A program made the translations under genes and the position numbers. This document shows positions 8,748 to 56,481 of a DNA stretch of 64,000 nt, one piece after another. The DNA comes from a phage. Below the pieces are notes generated by a model that had not been told where the DNA came from, made no database searches, and was given only the letters and a program-made list of their open reading frames with translations. The stretch is from the NCBI GenBank assembly GCA_012549035.1, contig GCA_012549035.1_4805.1, one strand, 5' to 3'. Every line of letters begins with the position of its first letter. The stretch's first letter is position 1.

Positions 8748-9329
8748 TCACACCGGAATATCGCCTAAATCGTTATTAACAGCTCTTGCAACAGCAGGCG
8801 TGTCAATTGAAATTGCGTTTCTGTGAAGGATTACCAAATCAAAAGAAGGAAACGATTCAAATTGCGACATGTCGTCATAGAACTTTTCATTGTTGTTCAT
8901 GTCGACTCTATATACTGAAGCTTGATGCTTTTTAAACCAATCTCTCAAATTAGCCTTGTGGGTTATGAATCTTGCTAAATAAGTCAAAACGTCATTAGCC
9001 GTAGGCTTTTCTGGATTGCCAGGGACTTCTGGAAATAAACCGCTAATTTGAAGACGTGTTGCGTATATCTGATCTTCAATATCTTTGAATTTTCCATTAA
9101 CGAATTGAGATTCATCATTGACAAATTCATTCTTTCTCATCGACCAACCGAATGGAACTGAGAATAAAAGGTTAAACCAAATCTGATCACCAGTCGGAAT
9201 GCCCTGTTGAGTCGGTTGGTATTTTTTCTGGACCGGAACAGCAGAAAGGTCTGCACGACTATACGCCGCCAGACCTTCTTCAATTCGCGTTGCCAGCATG
9301 TCAATCAGGTCGACATCTGTCATATACAC
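8748..9329 (-). CDS. hypothetical virion protein (193 aa)
   Basis: ORF in connector region. Confidence 0.5.
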   Translation of the reverse strand: MYMTDVDLIDMLATRIEEGLAAYSRADLSAVPVQKKYQPTQQGIPTGDQIWFNLLFSVPFGWSMRKNEFVNDESQFVNGKFKDIEDQIYATRLQISGLFPEVPGNPEKPTANDVLTYLARFITHKANLRDWFKKHQASVYRVDMNNNEKFYDDMSQFESFPSFDLVILHRNAISIDTPAVARAVNNDLGDIPV

Positions 9330-15449: not shown

Positions 15450-16301
15450 TCAAATGATTGGTATTTTTCTGCACTTGCAGTGTATTGCCCATCCAGGAGG
15501 ACCGATGTCACCCTTTTTGAACTTCAATTCGCCGCCAACTTCCCATAGGCGCTTGTCATCAAGTTTGAATCTCATTCCGTCGACGTGTTCATGAGAGATT
15601 CGCGGCTCCTTTCCTGCTCCTGAGTGCGCCCACTCAAATTCTTCGACTCCATTCTGGCGCATCCTTTCATCGCTTAGAACGCAATACAATTTGCTTGTCT
15701 GGTCTTTAGCGATCAAGTCGACTCTCTTTGCAGAGAAGTGTTTTACGTTTCGCAATGCCGCCTGAATGCCTGACGTGCCTTGCTGGGCTGGGTCGGGAGA
15801 AGTCAGCGAAAGCATGACTGCTTCGTACACTCTGTTGTGAATATCCTCGCCGACCTTAGTCACTAGAGTCGTGTTAAACTTCTCGCTTGTTCTAAGAGTG
15901 TTCTCAACGAATTTGTTATATGTGGCCTTTGGCGCTTCTATGCCTGCGGACTTAAGGCTTGCGAATGTAGCAGAAGTGGCACCCTTTTCGACCGATTTGA
16001 TAAAATCAGCGGCAATCTTCGACCCAACACGTGCAAACGCCTTTGCCCATTTCAGTTGCAGCCGTTTCATAAGGGTCTGGAATGTCGAATCAGCAGAGTC
16101 TTGCGCAAAAAACTTCTGCACCTGCTTCTTGTCAAGCCATTCTGAAATGCCTGCCTGATAGTCATCAATCATCGCATAGCAAAGACCTTTCATCTCACGA
16201 CGATAGGCCATCGCGATTGCGTTGGATGGGATTATCGGACTGCCGCGCCCGACTCTATCGGGTAAGCGGCGTTCACGTTTTTTCGAAGCTTTAAAAGCCA
16301 T
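15450..16301 (-). CDS. head morphogenesis protein (SPP1 gp7 / Mu F-like)
   Basis: Downstream of portal; C-terminal block HEHVDGMRFKLDD...GPPGWAIHCKCR typical of this family; start taken at ATG 16301 (MAFKASKK). Confidence 0.65.
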   Translation of the reverse strand: MAFKASKKRERRLPDRVGRGSPIIPSNAIAMAYRREMKGLCYAMIDDYQAGISEWLDKKQVQKFFAQDSADSTFQTLMKRLQLKWAKAFARVGSKIAADFIKSVEKGATSATFASLKSAGIEAPKATYNKFVENTLRTSEKFNTTLVTKVGEDIHNRVYEAVMLSLTSPDPAQQGTSGIQAALRNVKHFSAKRVDLIAKDQTSKLYCVLSDERMRQNGVEEFEWAHSGAGKEPRISHEHVDGMRFKLDDKRLWEVGGELKFKKGDIGPPGWAIHCKCRKIPII

Positions 16302-16302
16302 A

Positions 16303-18678
16303 TCAACCTTGCTTCGGTGAATTAGTAGGATTGTTGAGTGCTCCATATGCTTGAGAGCAATCACCCTTCAACCACTCCTTGAATGAGTTTACATCCAATT
16401 CGTGGATTGAGTCAAATCCATTCCAACCGTTACCAAATGATGCTTGATAAGCTTCTTTCGCTTCTTCTGCTGAATCGAATCCAAGCATACATTTGTGTTC
16501 ATCAAACTCGCCAGAGTAGTTATCGTTTTGGTTCACGATAAAAACTTTCGGTGACTTCAGATTTGGACCCACAAAGCAGTCGACTTCATCGCCGTCCGCG
16601 CCCTTGGTGCCCTTGATGAATCCGTAGTGGTGCGGCATCTTGACTGCCCATTCACCGTCAAGGCTGTTTCCTCTACGGATGCTGTTGCGAGGATTCTCAA
16701 TCCCAAGAATCAGTCCATGCAACTTCATCTTAGGTAATGATGCTGCGTCCATCTTTCCAACGTTGTGTCGTAAGTTTACGACATTACCTTTGACGCTTGG
16801 AAGGGTAGACGGTTGCACCGACCGTGAATCTTTTTGAGGGTCAAAATCCACATCCTGACCTTCTTTCAGGTAGTAATCCGCAATACCCTCCAGACCTTCT
16901 TTCAACTGCGTTAGGACATCAACCTGATGGCTTGATTCGTCATCGGTATCGTCCATGTTGATTTCAACAGGTGCTCTGTCAGGGTTTTCCGCCAACTCAC
17001 CACGCGCGGCACCCTCTGGCATAATACCTGTTTCGCTATAGAACTGGCCGCCCATCTTAACGACATCAGCTTTCGCCTGTTCAATATCGGCCTTACCTTG
17101 CAAGACTTCACCAGCAGACTTGCCAAGCAATGCCATATTCTCTGGAGACATCCCTGGGGTTTCTTCTGCTGCGTCTTCCGGCAGACGGTTGTAGCCGCTG
17201 TTTTTGTCGTCTTTGATGCGGTCGCGCTCTTCATCAGGAGAAATGACGCCAGCATCAATAAGAGTTTTGCCAGTGTTGGCTCGCTTATCATTGATTTCTG
17301 CAAGTTGAGTAGCAGTAAGTGAGCCAACTGGTTCCCATGCAACCTTAACATCGACATCCACCCCTTCTGATTTGAGAAGGATTTTGTAATGGCGGTCGAG
17401 AATTTTTGTCAGGTCATGCTGCTGGCACGTTTCCAACTCTTCGTGATAGCTGACCATCTCGAATTCACCAGTGGCATTAAAGCCTTTTGGCGAAGTCCCA
17501 AGCAGTTTGGTCGACGGAACTTTTGCGATTGCGGCCACCAGCTGGTACTGGTTCATGATGATGCTGTCGAAGTCTGACAAGTTGATGTCGAACTGGTCCA
17601 TCTCTTCTTTTTGGCCAAGCACTTTGACTGCATAGTTGTCGCGATACTTGATCCACATCATCAGACGTTCTGCAAAAGACCGCTCATTGGCAATCGCCTT
17701 GTCAACGTCGGTCCGCAGCGTGGTTGTACGCTTGGACATCGCCAGCAATGGCGCTTCGTTAGCGGTACGTTCAGCGGCATAGATGCGTTCATAAATCTGC
17801 TGAGTCAGAGGAATGCCGCCGTAAATATAAGTTGGCTTGAGAATATCAGCTGGCTCATCATTGCGCAAGATGATGAGGTGACTGCGATGATAACGTTGTC
17901 CGCTGATCACCCAGTATTCTGGATCATAGAAGTGCTGTGATGCAGGGTCTGCGGTATTTTCAGACGTCAAAAATGGCATCATCCAATAAGGGTCAACCTG
18001 AATGATTCCCTTGTAAGACCCCTTTGTCACACCATCAATGTTAAAAGGCTTGCTGTAATATTCTGGGTCATCGCTACGCACATCAAATATGATGACGCGG
18101 ATACCAAAAATATTTTTGAATCGTTCGGCTTCAACTAAGTGCTCTTTGATATTAAATTCTTTATCAATTTGCTTTAGGCGTTCGCTTGCCTGCACTGACA
18201 ATTCTGACTCAGAACTGGATTTGACTTCCCAACCTTTACGGACCGCATCGCGGCCTACCATGGAACACGCCTTGTTCACCAGCCAATGCTGTGCGATGAT
18301 GGCACAAGCTTGATAGCCGATGAATGACTGTGACAAATACCAGTTTTGAAGTTGAATAGGTACTGTGTATGGGTTGACCTGCCCTTCTGAACTGATGTTC
18401 TTCAAGGCATTATCCATAACTTTTTTGGATACTGTTGCGGAATCGACTGAACGACCTTTTATGATAGCAACACCGTCGCCATTAATATCAGGCTCATATA
18501 AAGGGAAGTCATCAACCGTTTTAAAGGTCGGTCGATTGCTTTCAGTCTTTTCCCAGCGTTGACCGCTGCCGCGCCTTTCAAGGCGTTCAAACGGTGCCAA
18601 TGGGTCGCCTGGCGGCATCTCCGCTGGTTCGGCTTCTGGTTGCGTCTTCTCCCAGAGTTTTATGCCAAGAATTTTCAT
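16303..18678 (-). CDS. portal protein with C-terminal inorganic pyrophosphatase-like domain
   Basis: Position between terminase and head morphogenesis genes; C-terminal ~130 aa carry YGFIKGTKGADGDEVDCFV and AEEAKEAYQASF, resembling family I PPase signature; track start is TTG 18711, ATG 18678 has an AGGTGG RBS. Confidence 0.7.
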   Translation of the reverse strand: MKILGIKLWEKTQPEAEPAEMPPGDPLAPFERLERRGSGQRWEKTESNRPTFKTVDDFPLYEPDINGDGVAIIKGRSVDSATVSKKVMDNALKNISSEGQVNPYTVPIQLQNWYLSQSFIGYQACAIIAQHWLVNKACSMVGRDAVRKGWEVKSSSESELSVQASERLKQIDKEFNIKEHLVEAERFKNIFGIRVIIFDVRSDDPEYYSKPFNIDGVTKGSYKGIIQVDPYWMMPFLTSENTADPASQHFYDPEYWVISGQRYHRSHLIILRNDEPADILKPTYIYGGIPLTQQIYERIYAAERTANEAPLLAMSKRTTTLRTDVDKAIANERSFAERLMMWIKYRDNYAVKVLGQKEEMDQFDINLSDFDSIIMNQYQLVAAIAKVPSTKLLGTSPKGFNATGEFEMVSYHEELETCQQHDLTKILDRHYKILLKSEGVDVDVKVAWEPVGSLTATQLAEINDKRANTGKTLIDAGVISPDEERDRIKDDKNSGYNRLPEDAAEETPGMSPENMALLGKSAGEVLQGKADIEQAKADVVKMGGQFYSETGIMPEGAARGELAENPDRAPVEINMDDTDDESSHQVDVLTQLKEGLEGIADYYLKEGQDVDFDPQKDSRSVQPSTLPSVKGNVVNLRHNVGKMDAASLPKMKLHGLILGIENPRNSIRRGNSLDGEWAVKMPHHYGFIKGTKGADGDEVDCFVGPNLKSPKVFIVNQNDNYSGEFDEHKCMLGFDSAEEAKEAYQASFGNGWNGFDSIHELDVNSFKEWLKGDCSQAYGALNNPTNSPKQG

Positions 18679-18840
18679 TGTTAACGCCACCTGACAGTGA
18701 AAGGGAATCAATCTATATTATAAATATTCATGTGTTTGTAAGCAAATGATATGTATGGTGATCATAAATAGTTCATAAAATATTTTGCTTTTGTATCATT
18801 TTGAGTTATATTTTAGTTAACCAAACGAAAGGAGATTGAA

Positions 18841-19257
18841 ATGAGCACAACAATTGTATTTGTCGTCTTGCACAACGGCGAAGTCGTTAACGTATGCGAA
18901 TATGAAGAACTGGCAAAGGCCACTGCTGCGCGATACGAAGGTGCTACTATTGACCCGTGGATTTTAGATGCGCGAAACGTCTTGCAGGCGACTTTGGATG
19001 AGTGGTTGTTGGGTCGCAAAGTCTATCCAGTAGACAACATCGACTCAATTCAAGGTGAAACAGTATATTTTGAAGATGAATGCGTTCGCGGCATCGGCAA
19101 ATTTATGGGATTGTGCCCATCTTCATCCAAAAATAAATTTTATCGTATTCAAGTTGAAGAAAACGATATGTTTGACAAAGTTACGCGCTCGATTGTTCCT
19201 GGCGGCGGCACTCCAATATTTATGGCAGAATCAGACATCAAAGGGATTATCAAATGA
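18841..19257 (+). CDS. hypothetical protein (138 aa)
   Basis: Strong RBS AAAGGAGATTGAA-ATG; plus-strand gene between minus-strand portal and terminase. Confidence 0.6.
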   Translation: MSTTIVFVVLHNGEVVNVCEYEELAKATAARYEGATIDPWILDARNVLQATLDEWLLGRKVYPVDNIDSIQGETVYFEDECVRGIGKFMGLCPSSSKNKFYRIQVEENDMFDKVTRSIVPGGGTPIFMAESDIKGIIK

Positions 19258-19493
19258 GAACTTTAACCGAACTCGATGTTTTGAAAGATGTTGCAGCCGC
19301 GCTGGGCGTTGAAGTCTCCGAAAAGTCGACACTGGGTGCACTGCGTCGTGATTTACTCGAAGCCGTCGACCGCAACGATTTTGATCGTAAGTGTTTGCAA
19401 AAGAAGATTCGACAGGCAGTAAGGGCGGGTAAGCGATTCCGTGCCAGGTCGTTTGCCGCAAGAAAACTCGACCTTCAGCACGGAATGCTTTAG
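19254..19493 (+). CDS. hypothetical basic protein (79 aa)
   Basis: ATGA start/stop overlap with upstream gene; ends 4 nt from terminase stop (convergent). Confidence 0.5.
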   Translation: MRTLTELDVLKDVAAALGVEVSEKSTLGALRRDLLEAVDRNDFDRKCLQKKIRQAVRAGKRFRARSFAARKLDLQHGML

Positions 19494-19496
19494 TTG

Positions 19497-20957
19497 TTAA
19501 AGGTTAGAGAAGAAGCCGGATGCTGCAACAATTGGTTTCATCAATGCCATGATTGCGGCGTCCGCTTTGTTAGGCGATTTAACTCCACGCTTTGCCATAT
19601 CCTTTTTCGATTCAACTTTGAACTTACCAAGAACAGACGTGTCTTTGCGCGGCGCTGACATCTCAAAAAGAAACGTCTCAATTTCTTCCGCAGACCAAGC
19701 AGGAATCCCAAGTTCTGGAATGCCGTCTGTGTCGATGGAAATCAACTCATCGGTCGGATATACGGCTTGCCCTGTCGCATACTCATATGTCTTTCTGAAT
19801 CGTTCGGCAATCTCAGTCCATTTTTGCGCTTTTATGTTTGCGAAATGGTCTTTATTGAGTATTTCAACGTGTGGTAACTCAAGGAAAACGTCATCAGGAT
19901 CATCAACAGCACCTTGCGCGTTGAACGCATTAAATTCGATTCTTGGGAATGTTGGATTTTCATGTATTGCATACTCATTGAGCTCATCAAATTTTGAACC
20001 AGCAAATGCACCGACACCGATGGCGTCATAGGTAATTGACGCGCCGAATGTCAATGCGTCTTTCCAAACTCCGCTTGCGGACTTAAGCAATTCATCTTCC
20101 AGACCTTCCCATGTCTTGATGCCACGTAATACGTTGCCTGTGACGAATGCAGTGGCGTTAAGGTCGTCGCCATCGTCCGCTACGTCAAAGCCTATACGGT
20201 TAGACCCTGACAAACTCCATCCCAGCGTAGGGTGCTTGTGGAGGTTAAGCGCAGCCTTAACGAATGCGCGGTTGATTACAGATTTGTCGCCGCCAGTCTT
20301 CGGCACGCCGCCATAAACGTGCTCTGCCTTTTTCGGGTCACGCTCGTACATGCCTGCAATAACGTCCAGCATTGTTTGCGACAAAAATGGATTGTCTTGC
20401 CAGTTTATCTTTTTAACAATGGCATTCTTCGGCGGTCGCATAACAAAGTTTTGGTAGACGAAATCGGCCTCTTCATCAGGGTTAAAGATGATCCATATTT
20501 CGGACCCTTCTTTACGGATTGTCGGCTCAATAATGTCCCACTGTTCTTCAGTAAGCGCGTGCGCTTCTTCCAGCCAAAGGACGTCAACACCTTCTGTTGA
20601 TTTAATTTCATCAACGTTACGTGCGATACCGTAAAATAGAAATTCAGATTTAGTTCTTTTATGTTCAATAGAGTTCTTTAATAAATTGAACTCATCTTTG
20701 AAATCAGAAATCTCTATTTTGTCTTTTAATAGAGTATATACAGATTCAGAAATCTTGTTCTGGAATTGTCGAACGCAAAGGAATTTTAATTTGAAGTTTG
20801 CCGCCAAATAAATAGCAAAACCAGCGGCATCGTGCGATTTGGAAGATGCACGACCGCCGTATATTACTTTGTATCGCGCTTTTGTCTTCCAGACTTCTTT
20901 TAAAGCAGGATTCAACTGGTACATGACTTTCCAATTATGTGTTAATATTTTATTCAT
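19497..20957 (-). CDS. terL: terminase large subunit
   Basis: 486 aa; N-terminal ATPase block KVIYGGRASSKSHDAAGF (Walker A-like) and overall large-terminase architecture. Confidence 0.85.
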   Translation of the reverse strand: MNKILTHNWKVMYQLNPALKEVWKTKARYKVIYGGRASSKSHDAAGFAIYLAANFKLKFLCVRQFQNKISESVYTLLKDKIEISDFKDEFNLLKNSIEHKRTKSEFLFYGIARNVDEIKSTEGVDVLWLEEAHALTEEQWDIIEPTIRKEGSEIWIIFNPDEEADFVYQNFVMRPPKNAIVKKINWQDNPFLSQTMLDVIAGMYERDPKKAEHVYGGVPKTGGDKSVINRAFVKAALNLHKHPTLGWSLSGSNRIGFDVADDGDDLNATAFVTGNVLRGIKTWEGLEDELLKSASGVWKDALTFGASITYDAIGVGAFAGSKFDELNEYAIHENPTFPRIEFNAFNAQGAVDDPDDVFLELPHVEILNKDHFANIKAQKWTEIAERFRKTYEYATGQAVYPTDELISIDTDGIPELGIPAWSAEEIETFLFEMSAPRKDTSVLGKFKVESKKDMAKRGVKSPNKADAAIMALMKPIVAASGFFSNL

Positions 20958-21033
20958 ATTATAGTTTGCTTGTGCAAGCTATATCAAGTAAAATTATGAT
21001 TCCAGCTTAGTAGTGGATAAAGGGTGATCTTTC

Positions 21034-21061
21034 GGCCAGATTCTTTCTGGCCATTTTTTTA
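21034..21061 (+). terminator. intrinsic terminator-like hairpin
   Basis: GGCCAGA-ttctt-TCTGGCC followed by TTTTTTT; lies between divergent terminase and 21075 genes. Confidence 0.5.
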
Positions 21062-21074
21062 TCAGGAGTAAACC

Positions 21075-21305
21075 ATGGCCCTAGTCAACATTCAACTCAC
21101 TCCCTCTTATACTTCCGTAATCTCTGTTGCTGAAAACGTATCAGGAGCACTTATTCAAGTTCGCGGCGGTGCCGCTGAGATTTGTTTTGGGGAAAAGGCC
21201 GATGACAATTTGATCGGAATCGCAGTTGTTGGTACAGTCACAATCCCGCCAGGCGTTGAGATTTTCGCAAAGGGAAGTGGCACATTAATTGCGTCTTCAC
21301 ACTAA
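21075..21305 (+). CDS. hypothetical protein (76 aa)
   Basis: RBS AGGAG 7 nt upstream of ATG. Confidence 0.55.
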   Translation: MALVNIQLTPSYTSVISVAENVSGALIQVRGGAAEICFGEKADDNLIGIAVVGTVTIPPGVEIFAKGSGTLIASSH

Positions 21306-21393
21306 TACGATGCCATGGACGGCATAATTCACAAAAAGTTTGCCTTTCTGAAACTCTGCGTTATAATCATATTAACTCAAAACCGGAGGTAAT

Positions 21394-21609
21394 ATGAAAC
21401 TCATCGACCGTGCCATCAAAGCCATAGATAACCATTCCACAGCTATTGCATTTGTAATGGGATTCTGTTTTACTGCTGCGTTTGGCGACGTTCAAACATT
21501 CAAGTCTGTCATCTTGTGCTGGTCTATCTGGTCCCTCATTTCTCTGGTTTTGATTCTTCCGATGACGTGGCTTGTCCTTACTTGTCTGGAATCTCAAGGT
21601 GAAGACTGA
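21394..21609 (+). CDS. small membrane protein (71 aa)
   Basis: RBS GGAGG; two predicted hydrophobic helices. Confidence 0.55.
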   Translation: MKLIDRAIKAIDNHSTAIAFVMGFCFTAAFGDVQTFKSVILCWSIWSLISLVLILPMTWLVLTCLESQGED

Positions 21610-28569: not shown

Positions 28570-29208
28570 ATGGCCAGTTTGAATCGTTTCTCCACCAGCG
28601 GCGACGTAATCGCAACCAAGACAGCCGACCTCGTTGCATTCTATAACGAAAATTCAGGCTCAAAGCCGATTAAAAAATTCGCGGACCGCCGGACCGCCGA
28701 GACTCGCGTAATCGCGTTAATCGAGTCCTTAAACGCGCTCGATGAGCCGTCCAACGAATCGCCCATCCCAGACGTGAAGGCGCGTGAGGAAGTGTCCAGC
28801 GATGTAAAAACGCATAAGGCGCGTGCGGTCGTTAAAAAGGCTGAGCCGACCCAGGAAGAACTCGACGCGATGAGTGATGAAGAGTATGAAGCCTTCGTTA
28901 AGAGCAGCCTTAATAGCGCTCCGGTTGGCGCTCCGGTTGGCGCGGATAAAATTGCCAGCCCTTCCCATCGCCGTTCGAATAGCGAAGGTATTGCAAAAAG
29001 TTGGGATAACAAGGAAGTGGCGCAAAAGCGTCTCACCCGTAACGGCGTTATGGTCGAGGGTGTAGGCGAGTTCAAATCGGTCCGCGTAGCGTTCGCCGCG
29101 CTGGGATTACCGGATAGCAAGCACATTCGCTTCCGCATGAAGCTTAAAGAAGCTGGACGCTTGAACTTCGAGTTCGGCAACAAGTCCTACACCTTCCAGA
29201 TTATCTAA
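28570..29208 (+). CDS. hypothetical protein (212 aa)
   Basis: RBS AGGAG; CpG-rich codon usage; Ala/Pro-rich linker APVGAPVGA; terminator directly downstream. Confidence 0.65.
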   Translation: MASLNRFSTSGDVIATKTADLVAFYNENSGSKPIKKFADRRTAETRVIALIESLNALDEPSNESPIPDVKAREEVSSDVKTHKARAVVKKAEPTQEELDAMSDEEYEAFVKSSLNSAPVGAPVGADKIASPSHRRSNSEGIAKSWDNKEVAQKRLTRNGVMVEGVGEFKSVRVAFAALGLPDSKHIRFRMKLKEAGRLNFEFGNKSYTFQII

Positions 29209-29636: not shown

Positions 29637-30110
29637 CTAGTGGCGGGAGAATTGCTCACCCTCTTTGGCCGCCTCTCCAAAATCCTTGTAGAAATCGTCC
29701 ATGGAACGGCCCATTTTACTATTGCCATTCTCATCAATCATCGTGATGCCGTAGATGATATTCAGTTCACGAATGGCATTAAGCTTGGCTGATGCCGCGA
29801 CTTCTGGATCACGCACAAGCTTCACTAAATTGTGAATGGAACTCTTTACACTCCACAATTCCTTCAATGGCATCTCTTCCATACGCTTTTTGTAGCGCAT
29901 CTTGTAGTACGGATTGCGTTGCGTGCAGAGGATTCGCTGGCCAGTGTAGTTATCGGTCGCAACCTCCATGCCAAATACTAGTGCAAAAGCTGCGCGCATG
30001 TCATGGCCCTGAATAACAAGGTCAATGAACTCATCGAATAATGCCTGATTATGCTCTGCAAATCGCGGGTCTTCAAAGTCTTCAGGCATTGCTACATAAT
30101 CTTGACTCAT
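29637..30110 (-). CDS. hypothetical protein (157 aa), possible small terminase-like DNA-binding protein
   Basis: ATG at 30110 lies inside a motif copy; track TTG extension to 30305 rejected; weak resemblance to small-terminase N-terminal helix pattern, identity uncertain. Confidence 0.55.
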   Translation of the reverse strand: MSQDYVAMPEDFEDPRFAEHNQALFDEFIDLVIQGHDMRAAFALVFGMEVATDNYTGQRILCTQRNPYYKMRYKKRMEEMPLKELWSVKSSIHNLVKLVRDPEVAASAKLNAIRELNIIYGITMIDENGNSKMGRSMDDFYKDFGEAAKEGEQFSRH

Positions 30111-30338
30111 AGTGCAAATCCCATAGTGCAAATTAATAGTGTGAATTATACAATGATTGAACATTATATTCAAGTGCAGATTGATGTTCAAATTGGCTGT
30201 AAACGTACATAAATCATAGTGCTGAATGAATATCGGACCGTGGTGCGTGGTGTACTGTTTGATACGTATAAAAGAAATCCATCCCTTTCGCCGCTTGTTA
30301 TGCAAATCAATGACTTAGCCGCTGCTGGCTGGTTGAAG

Positions 30339-40375: not shown

Positions 40376-40511
40376 TTAATCCTCCTGATACGGCTTTGTT
40401 ATATTGTTGCATGGATATATCCTTTCAGGGTGCGGTAAATAAACGCCAGAAATCTGGCGTTGTATATTAATATAGTAAAACTCAATTTAAAGCAATATAA
40501 CTGGTGAACTA

Positions 40512-41628: not shown

Positions 41629-41686
41629 GAATCACCTCTGCTTCAGTTCATAAAATGATTATAGTTGCTATGAAAATAAAAGCAAA

Positions 41687-55663: not shown

Positions 55664-55927
55664 ATGGTACGCATCCTTGAACGTTACAAAAATGAAGCTA
55701 CTGGAGTAATCGCTTTCAAACGTCTTTTGGTCAAAGAAATTGACGGAATGTTCCGCGTTGTTAAAGAGTTTGATTATGGCAACGGTGCTGGGGTGAATAC
55801 CGTTATTATGCCTGGCATCAAGGCATATAAAACCTTAAAAGGCGCTGAGAAGGCTTTGGCGGCTTGGAAACCTGAACGTTATCAAATGACCCGTGTTGAA
55901 GGGCTAATGCAAGAAGGTAAAATATGA
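55664..55927 (+). CDS. hypothetical protein (87 aa)
   Basis: ORF with RBS-like GAGGAA upstream. Confidence 0.5.
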   Translation: MVRILERYKNEATGVIAFKRLLVKEIDGMFRVVKEFDYGNGAGVNTVIMPGIKAYKTLKGAEKALAAWKPERYQMTRVEGLMQEGKI

Positions 55928-56481
55928 GCAATATTAATTGGGAAGATGATTTGCCGCAGGTTGCTCCTGAGAGCATTCAAGAGCGCCTTGCGCGCTTAGT
56001 ATCTGAACTGGCAGAACGCCAAGAAGCTTTGACGGAGCTTGAAGATGAAGCTGATATGCAAAAGCAGCGCATCAGTGAAATCAAAACTGTTCTGCTTCCT
56101 GGCGTTATGGATGAGCTTGGTGTGTCTGAAATCAAGCTTGAGGACAAGACCAAAATCAAGGTCGAGTCAAAGGTGAATGCTTCAATCAAGAAAGAAAACG
56201 AATTAAAAGTTTTCGATTGGCTTGTCAACAACGGTTACGGCGGCTTGATCAAGTCCAGCGTCACGGCTGAGTTCGGTCGCGAAGAAATCGAACAGGCGCA
56301 AGAGATTGTTGCCGCGCTGCGTGAAGATGGTGTTGAAGCCACGTTGAAACAAGGCGTTCACTCTGCTACACTGAAGTCGTTTGTAAAAGAACAGCTGGAA
56401 GCGGGCAATCCAGTTAGTGAAGATATTAGCGTTTTTGAATACAAAGAAGCTAAAATAACCTTGCCTAAAAGCAAAAAGTAA
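55924..56481 (+). CDS. hypothetical acidic protein (185 aa)
   Basis: ATGA overlap with upstream gene. Confidence 0.5.
   Translation: MSNINWEDDLPQVAPESIQERLARLVSELAERQEALTELEDEADMQKQRISEIKTVLLPGVMDELGVSEIKLEDKTKIKVESKVNASIKKENELKVFDWLVNNGYGGLIKSSVTAEFGREEIEQAQEIVAALREDGVEATLKQGVHSATLKSFVKEQLEAGNPVSEDISVFEYKEAKITLPKSKK

Follow-up and report, generated by a model that had tools for sequence, protein, structure and literature searches.

In Pbunavirus, the region between the genes for the large terminase (TerL) and the portal protein is termed the 'early genome region'; in phage 14-1, it encodes gp11 (YIP), a binding partner of the diguanylate cyclase YfiN, and gp12, an inhibitor of transcription that binds RNA polymerase alpha (PMC8085984; PMC10914365). 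ONT-cappable-seq of 14-1 revealed a sigma70 start at 9116 on the minus strand (P012) that drives gp17-gp13 and another at 9247 on the plus strand (P013) that heads the portal gene, and TerL was recovered as the monocistronic unit TU002, running from 822 to 2359 (bioRxiv 10.1101/2023.10.13.562163, Tables S3, S5). Transcripts of the gene island located between TerL and portal reach position 2229, overlapping the 3' end of TerL by about 130 nt (bioRxiv 10.1101/2023.10.13.562163). In phage E217, the gene for the small terminase (TerS) sits about 58 kb from TerL (review, PMC9611059). The gp11 and gp12 genes of 14-1 map inside the TerL-portal island, and P013 appears in the GenBank annotation of this phage too. 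Small genes in such a place may also recall the classical morons of lambdoid phages, which are autonomous promoter-gene-terminator units inserted between conserved neighbours.

Here we analysed a 64,000-nt stretch of phage DNA (GenBank assembly GCA_012549035.1, contig GCA_012549035.1_4805.1; hereafter, the window) in which two small plus-strand genes lie between the minus-strand portal and TerL genes. The initial annotation regarded them as an insertion of the moron type, a kind that frequently has host-interaction or exclusion functions. We favor a different reading, to which we assign as a whole a probability of roughly 70%: the pair is all that is left of an old operon that runs on the opposite strand between TerL and portal, and its products are accessory and probably early.

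Results

Two genes under purifying selection separate portal and TerL

Positions 16000-21500 of the window are 92-96% identical at the nucleotide level to 29 Wifcevirus records, including TH35, Mansfield, ECML-117, WFH, WFC, FEC19 and Bas98-101, all of them from myoviruses of E. coli and Shigella with genomes of 66-72 kb. Structural genes occupy the minus strand from 175 up to TerL at 20924, and the locus is organized as follows:

16303-18678, minus strand: portal gene, left flank (Pfam Phage_portal_3, 3.4e-88), with a C-terminal inorganic pyrophosphatase-like domain (InPase, 3.7e-46); start at 18678 taken from the annotation of phage Mansfield
18841-19257, plus strand: orf138 (ORF call), 138 aa, ATG start, family A
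19254-19493, plus strand: orf79 (ORF call), 79 aa, ATG start, family C
19497-20924, minus strand: TerL, large terminase, right flank (Pfam Terminase_3, 3.2e-37)

The coupled arrangement noted in the initial annotation is readily seen in the letters: the start codon of orf79 (19254-19256) and the TGA stop of orf138 (19255-19257) share the tetranucleotide ATGA. The two genes point away from portal and towards TerL, the facing stop codons of orf79 and TerL being separated by 3 nt. Both ORFs are listed as hypothetical proteins in the GenBank records of relatives. Elsewhere in the window, a cassette with a 76-aa ORF at 21075-21305 suits the definition of a moron far better than orf138-orf79.

Comparison of the window with three Wifcevirus genomes (L008, L012 and L001) yielded dN/dS ratios of 0.06-0.14 for orf138 and 0-0.06 for orf79, with higher values (0.38-2.3) in the other five frames of the pair region. 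Substitutions pile up at the third codon positions of the plus-strand frames of both ORFs. orf138 and orf79 are real protein-coding genes under purifying selection.

Orthologs of the pair occupy the same slot in related phages

Every one of the 29 Wifcevirus records contains both genes, at no less than 94.9% amino-acid identity. Single-sequence, word-seeded searches with the two proteins recovered Wifcevirus-like proteins alone, and weak but paired tblastn matches pointed to Pantoea phage Kyle (Kylevirus). Between its portal and TerL genes, Kyle carries five plus-strand genes, gp26-gp22, of which gp26 (143 aa) resembles orf138 and gp24 (76 aa as annotated) resembles orf79. A profile search combined with an exhaustive HMMER search uncovered seven further relatives of orf138, and all those with readable context occupy the same TerL-portal slot. 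The homologs of orf79 found in Kyle, L020, L021, L024 and L025 each lie inside this island as well. Overall, homologs of the pair at 21-66% identity occur in five other lineages; IMG/VR scans with the alignments of both families recovered known genomes alone.

An all-against-all comparison of the island proteins defined six families:

Family A: orf138-like, first gene, beside portal
Family B: Trypsin_2 protease with a lipoprotein signal peptide, between A and C
Family C: orf79-like
Family D: about 100 aa, matches MTx gp25
Family E: about 170 aa, matches MTx gp24
Family F: DUF2786/DUF7168, about 250 aa, last gene, beside TerL; found in MTx gp22, JG024 gp09 and Pluto

Their order is constant, with A first next to portal and F last next to TerL, and their number varies, the islands of the Kyle-like phages holding between four and seven genes:

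L021 and L027: A, B, C, D, E, F
L025: A, B, one extra gene, C, D, E, F
Kyle and L029: A, B, C, D, F
L024: A, a 45-aa relic of B (signal peptide plus C-terminal tail), C, D, E, F
L020: A, B, C, F
Wifcevirus: A and C only

The Kylevirus-type islands (Kyle, L020, L021, L024, L025, L027 and L029) share with the window the orthologs of both genes, their order and their promoters, but unlike Wifcevirus they also code for B between A and C, then for D/E, and finally for F. No homologs of B, D, E or F were found in the 64-kb window. A weak match to DUF2786/DUF7168 at 55924-56481 was discarded, the protein actually being of the DUF7307 type (Pam3 gp33-like).

More distant relatives recruited through TerL (58-66% identity) show the same opposite-strand plan, with islands of 7 genes in Serratia phage MTx, 13 in Pseudomonas phage E217, at least 9 in Pseudomonas phage JG024 and a single one in Luteibacter phage Pluto; family F is present in all four. 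In every relative examined, TerL and portal are kept apart by an opposite-strand island.

Profile comparisons further connect family A to Pbunavirus. Ten of the 11 family A members matched phrog_5124 (best E 1.9e-5), which E217 gp18 matches at 1e-87, and hhalign of family A against E217 gp18 returned probabilities of 97.5-97.8% over 115-117 aligned columns (for member A7, 97.5% and E 5.7e-12). On this basis, orf138 is assigned to phrog_5124 as a homolog of E217 gp18 and 14-1 gp17 (ORF16). These Pbunavirus proteins are close to orf138 in size (133 vs 138 aa) at about 25% identity, and their genes likewise come first in the opposite-strand island, read away from portal from a sigma70 promoter; they lead, however, an island of about 13 genes, whereas orf138 leads a two-gene unit. 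The same leading position is found in the window, Kyle, L020, L021, L024, L025, L029, E217 and 14-1. In contrast, when family C was compared by hhalign with every island protein of E217 and MTx, no homolog was detected, so family C can be dated less securely than family A.

The islands of all relatives, together with the family A homolog in Pbunavirus, show that the slot is ancestral, and orf138 has been inherited vertically since at least the split between the Pseudomonas and enterobacterial lineages. Because the relatives hold more genes at the site, we infer that the Wifcevirus pair is a reduced island that arose by loss rather than gain, a direction that is read from the distribution of the genes and not from a rooted phylogeny.

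Candidate promoters of the pair and of portal stand back-to-back

The 162-bp spacer between portal and orf138 can be aligned across Wifcevirus, L020, Kyle and L021 despite protein identities of 21-66%. It accommodates two candidate promoters, which together with the ribosome binding sites (RBS) of the pair are as follows:

18785-18812, plus strand: candidate sigma70-type promoter of the pair, TTGCTT (18785-18790), 16-nt spacer, TATATT (18807-18812)
18717-18745, minus strand: divergent candidate portal promoter, TTGCTT (18745 to 18740), 17-nt spacer, TATAAT (18722 to 18717)
18830-18834, plus strand: RBS of orf138, AGGAG, 6 nt before the ATG; also annotated as RBS in phage Mansfield
19240-19246, plus strand: weaker candidate RBS of orf79, AAAGGGA

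The promoter and the strong RBS that the initial annotation had proposed upstream of orf138 are both present, and the former is kept in L020, Kyle and L021 (TTGCTT/TTGACT, 16-17 nt, TATATT/TATACT), as is the portal promoter on the reverse strand. The predicted transcription start of the pair, near 18819, would leave a 5' UTR of about 20 nt. The pattern TTGCTT-N15-18-TATAWT occurs four times in the window, compared with 0.04 occurrences expected. Another promoter retrieved by the scan, CTGACA, 17 nt, TATATT at 18691-18719 on the plus strand, was dropped, its -35 element not being conserved in relatives. TerL is probably a monocistronic unit as well, with a promoter candidate of its own at 20987 to 20958 on the minus strand (TTGATA, 18 nt, TATAAT; scan score 11/12).

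P012 and P013 of 14-1 are the positional counterparts of the pair and portal promoters of the window, and the units mapped in this phage mean that the three-unit architecture predicted for the window is thus experimentally established in a relative. Promoter type cannot tell early from late transcription here, because the portal promoter is at least as sigma70-like as that of the pair. Papers that apply RNA-seq to 14-1 or transposon mutagenesis to phages gave no timing or essentiality data for homologs of the pair.

Predicted features of the two proteins

Searches against Pfam, PHROGs, PDB and Foldseek did not return any significant match of orf138 or orf79 to a protein of known function. PDB sequence-profile searches with both families likewise gave nothing significant beyond a borderline match of the family A C-terminal domain profile to the KOW region of ribosomal uL24 (E 0.025), and PADLOC defence-system models matched neither protein at E values up to 0.1.

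The orf138 family is acidic (pI 4.5-5.1; orf138 itself, 4.7). An AlphaFold2 model built from eight sequences (pLDDT 78) predicts two domains joined by a low-confidence linker, one at the N-terminus with a beta-beta-alpha-beta fold (residues 1-43) and one at the C-terminus that forms an SH3/KOW-like beta-barrel (residues about 58-138). The conserved motif GDxVxFxDxxxRGxGxV of family A, which the uL24 match spans, resembles a KOW motif. Both traits would liken orf138 to KOW/Tudor-like SH3 barrels such as uL24, NusG KOW, the CarD/Mfd RID and the N-terminal domain of T4 MotB. Foldseek against PDB gave no significant match for the model, the best (E 0.14) being to generic SH3/BAH/Tudor/Sm/R67 DHFR folds, and against BFVD it retrieved orf138 itself, the Kyle protein and, weakly, T4 MotB-like 'transcriptional regulators' (E 0.06-0.26). 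A single member of family A matched Pfam CarD_TRCF_RID (E 0.024). All matches to such barrels, including those of Foldseek (Tudor, BAH, Sm and MotB-like; E 0.06-0.7), are sub-significant, and function is not transferable from them to orf138.

The model of orf79, computed from a near-single-sequence alignment, consists of four helices (pLDDT 76). The N-terminal 42 residues are acidic and fold in the model into a helix (6-17), an extended loop (18-26) and a second helix (27-40). This helix-loop-helix may recall HeH/SAP/Rho-N-like DNA-binding motifs in sequence pattern, with no match in Pfam, PDB or Foldseek; searches of the whole protein against Pfam, PDB profiles, PHROGs and Foldseek were equally negative. 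The C-terminal tail is strongly basic, with a net charge of +9.8 in orf79 and of +7 to +10 across family C, and the family has one invariant Cys.

A conserved hairpin lies where the pair meets TerL

The junction between the two converging genes features a potential secondary structure:

19433-19488, both strands: stem-loop within the final 60 nt of orf79, directly after the TerL stop codon on the other strand

Its minimum free energy is -28.7 kcal/mol (z = -2.7), and the minus-strand fold reaches -30.2 kcal/mol (z = -2.6). Nine Wifcevirus sequences show no change in the stem arms, where all 12 third-codon positions are fixed, as opposed to 22 variable ones among the 67 in the rest of orf79 (Fisher p = 0.014). 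No such hairpin is seen in the corresponding region of L020, where the orf79 homolog is not the last gene. We infer that the structure may act as a terminator or RNA-stabilising element shared by the two converging transcripts.

This arrangement raises the possibility that transcription itself is the main function of the locus, its convergence into TerL setting the level or timing of TerL mRNA through antisense RNA or polymerase collision. The 3-nt gap between the stop codons, the invariance of the stems at synonymous sites and the overlapping 3' ends of the TerL and island transcripts in 14-1 are all compatible with such a role. We nonetheless judge it quite unlikely as the main function: the protein-level purifying selection on both ORFs means that the proteins matter, a different gene (family F) converges on TerL in the relatives, and the antisense RNA count of the 14-1 paper gives no antisense start sites. 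A role in transcription could hold alongside protein functions, rather than replacing them.

The small terminase is encoded elsewhere

The location of the pair, between portal and TerL, could also suggest that one of its products serves in packaging, and the 138-aa protein had been named as a potential small terminase. We identified the TerS homolog at a different site of the window:

29637-30305, minus strand: TerS homolog (phmmer against E217 gp78, E 6.8e-35; against PDB 7UXE, E 1.9e-32)

The assignment was made through PDB 7UXE, a 'Small terminase' to which E217 gp78 is identical; no small terminase is annotated in the Wifcevirus record regions examined. Neither orf138 nor orf79 matched a TerS family in Pfam, PHROGs, PDB profile searches or Foldseek. 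The alpha/beta domain and beta-barrel of the orf138 model are not TerS-like, and the helical orf79 model matches no TerS fold. The E217 small terminase is also a small protein from the same phage group, but it has no similarity to either of them. Hence, the TerS homolog at 29637-30305 and the lack of similarity to TerS rule out orf138 as the small terminase.

A broader role in packaging or head assembly, be it as a terminase or portal accessory factor or as a chaperone, is very unlikely. The place beside the portal gene has been kept in three genera, and the basic orf79 could bind DNA. However, the TerS of the clade is a different protein, no terminase, scaffold or head family was matched, the pair forms a transcription unit on the opposite strand separate from the structural genes, and the corresponding part of Pbunavirus genomes is regarded as early and host-directed (PMC8085984).

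Discussion

We propose that orf138 and orf79 are what Wifcevirus retains of an old operon that spans the PB1-like myoviruses, that is, Pbunavirus, Myosmarvirus, Kylevirus, Wifcevirus and uncultured relatives. The operon runs A-B-C-D-E-F in enterobacterial relatives, and the Wifcevirus lineage would have lost B, D, E and F while keeping A and C. In the window, the two genes would form one short operon transcribed from the sigma70-type promoter placed back-to-back with that of portal, with translation of orf79 probably coupled to that of orf138. Their products are most likely non-structural accessory proteins, which would be made by the host RNA polymerase and probably early, as are those of the Pbunavirus island genes. 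This analogy makes a host-interaction class plausible for both proteins. The Pbunavirus early region shares with the pair its slot, strand logic, sigma70-type promoters and small ORFan proteins, but gp11 and gp12 have no Wifcevirus homolog at the site, family A alone being common to both.

As for the molecular activities, our best guess, which is doubtful, is that the acidic orf138 would use its SH3/KOW-like barrel to dock on a protein or nucleic-acid complex of the host or the phage, and that orf79 would bind nucleic acid via its basic C-terminal tail. It is unlikely, though conceivable, that A and C make up the irreducible core of the early island of the clade and jointly retarget a host nucleic-acid machine (RNA polymerase, ribosome or nucleoid proteins), with the hairpin and the head-on arrangement with TerL as an additional antisense timing device. 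T4 MotB and 14-1 gp12 would be analogous in logic. If true, such retargeting might be part of the reason why Wifcevirus is reported to grow very fast and to tolerate restriction.

The reading of the pair as a moron, a recently acquired autonomous unit with a host-interaction or exclusion function, draws on genuine similarities. Like the morons of lambdoid phages, orf138 and orf79 have their own promoter and RBS, run on the opposite strand within a late-gene region and code for small proteins without assigned function. The terminator expected of such a unit is represented by a candidate hairpin, and the content of the site differs between genera. Nevertheless, the other marks of a moron are missing: presence/absence variation was not seen within the genus, and the GC content of the pair (0.41-0.50) shows no anomaly with respect to the flanks (0.43-0.52). 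Synteny is also against an insertion, as the relatives hold more genes at the site rather than fewer, Kyle-like phages carry orthologs at the same position (Pbunavirus too, for family A), and the neighbours that an insertion would have parted are adjacent in none of them. Vertical inheritance sets the pair further apart from lambdoid morons, and we consider recent acquisition highly improbable. Finally, the notion that both ORFs are chance or mis-called, the real gene(s) being on the minus strand with TerL and portal in one operon, has a negligible probability: minus-strand ORFs of 68 and 76 aa do overlap the region, but the signature of purifying selection is confined to the plus-strand frames (0.38-2.3 in the minus frames), diverged homologs exist in five other lineages, and the AlphaFold2 models reach pLDDT 76-78.

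Read as the remnant of an old operon, the two genes are conserved ORFans of an ordinary kind within a genome architecture that is already known, and no new mechanism is demonstrated by our data. Both genes were already annotated as hypothetical, and the orf138 family exists as a PHROG; what is new is the homology that ties Wifcevirus to Pbunavirus, the step-by-step reduction of the island, the conservation of both promoters and the location of TerS. Annotators can now refer orf138 to the family of 14-1 gp17 and E217 gp18 (phrog_5124) and name the ORF at 29637-30305 as the Wifcevirus TerS. For the group as a whole, the opposite-strand genes that part TerL from the head genes belong to an inherited ground plan and do not mark an insertion event. 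The stepwise shrinkage of the island, from ABCDEF to ABCF and AC, singles out A and C as the genes that Wifcevirus could not lose. Retained through this shrinkage, they are a sensible place to begin knock-out and interaction studies in these therapeutically relevant phages.

Small terminase and the portal–pyrophosphatase fusion

The small terminase (TerS) homolog lies ~9 kb from TerL, the large terminase gene, on the minus strand at 29637-30305, and its product matches the TerS of Pbunavirus E217 (PDB 7UXE) with an E value of 1.9e-32. It adjoins a plus-strand homolog of E217 gp79 (28570..29208). No annotated small terminase was found in the Wifcevirus record regions inspected. The product of the portal gene (16303-18678, minus strand) matches the InPase family (Pfam PF18823) at residues 660-782 (E 3.7e-46), and its C-terminal domain is inorganic pyrophosphatase-like. 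This fusion is common to the window, the Kyle-like relatives and Luteibacter phage Pluto, whose fused portal gene carries the annotation 'inorganic pyrophosphatase'.

The gene pair and its counterparts in relatives

The two plus-strand genes between portal and TerL are orf138 (18841-19257) and orf79 (19254-19493). The 3' end of orf79 contains a hairpin that abuts the TerL stop codon:

19433-19488, hairpin within orf79

Across nine Wifcevirus genomes, synonymous sites in its stem arms are invariant (0/12 vs 22/67, p = 0.014). A 156-aa version of orf138 (P0008) occurs in one Wifcevirus-like metagenomic contig (L007, 8001-8471), overlapping orf79 by ~60 nt, and probably stems from a frameshift or assembly error close to the 3' end.

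In relatives, the orf138 and orf79 homologs flank a gene whose product, a serine protease of the trypsin-like type, bears the signal peptide of a lipoprotein (MKK..LALAGCS); in one Kyle-like contig (L024) it is reduced to a 45-aa relic retaining only the signal peptide and C-terminal tail:

L020 8411-9019, protease
L003 7414-7959, protease
L021 1857-2417, protease
L025 8426-8998, protease
L024 3250-3387, protease relic

A phage-encoded envelope lipoprotein protease is unusual in such an early island of opposite-strand genes.

Promoters

Promoters of the class TTGCTT-N15-18-TATAWT number four in the window, against 0.04 expected:

18717-18745, minus, site 1
18785-18812, plus, site 2
40469-40495, minus, site 3
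41658-41685, minus, site 4

The -35 region of this class resembles the tGCTTTAC motif of the sigma70-type promoters of Pbunavirus 14-1. TerL has its own promoter:

within 20947-20990, minus, TTGATA, 18 nt, TATAAT

This promoter overlaps the near-palindrome GCTTGTGCAAGC, which on the plus strand provides a further TTGCTT -35 element pointing toward the plus-strand small genes; the TerL promoter and a plus-strand TTGCTT promoter may therefore be overlapping and divergent.

An accessory cassette near TerL

A ~261-bp cassette in the 21034-21370 region comprises an RBS, a 76-aa ORF and a short hairpin, and is bordered by a terminator-like hairpin on one side and a promoter on the other:

21034-21052, terminator-like hairpin followed by T7
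21075..21305, plus, 76-aa ORF
21340-21367, promoter TTGCCT, 16 nt, TATAAT

Genome comparison evidenced its presence in the window and Mansfield and its clean absence from WFH and L008, both also Wifcevirus; the 76-aa ORF is a true presence/absence accessory gene. The initial annotation had proposed the orf138/orf79 pair as a moron, that is, an autonomous inserted transcription unit, but the 76-aa ORF cassette fits this definition far better.
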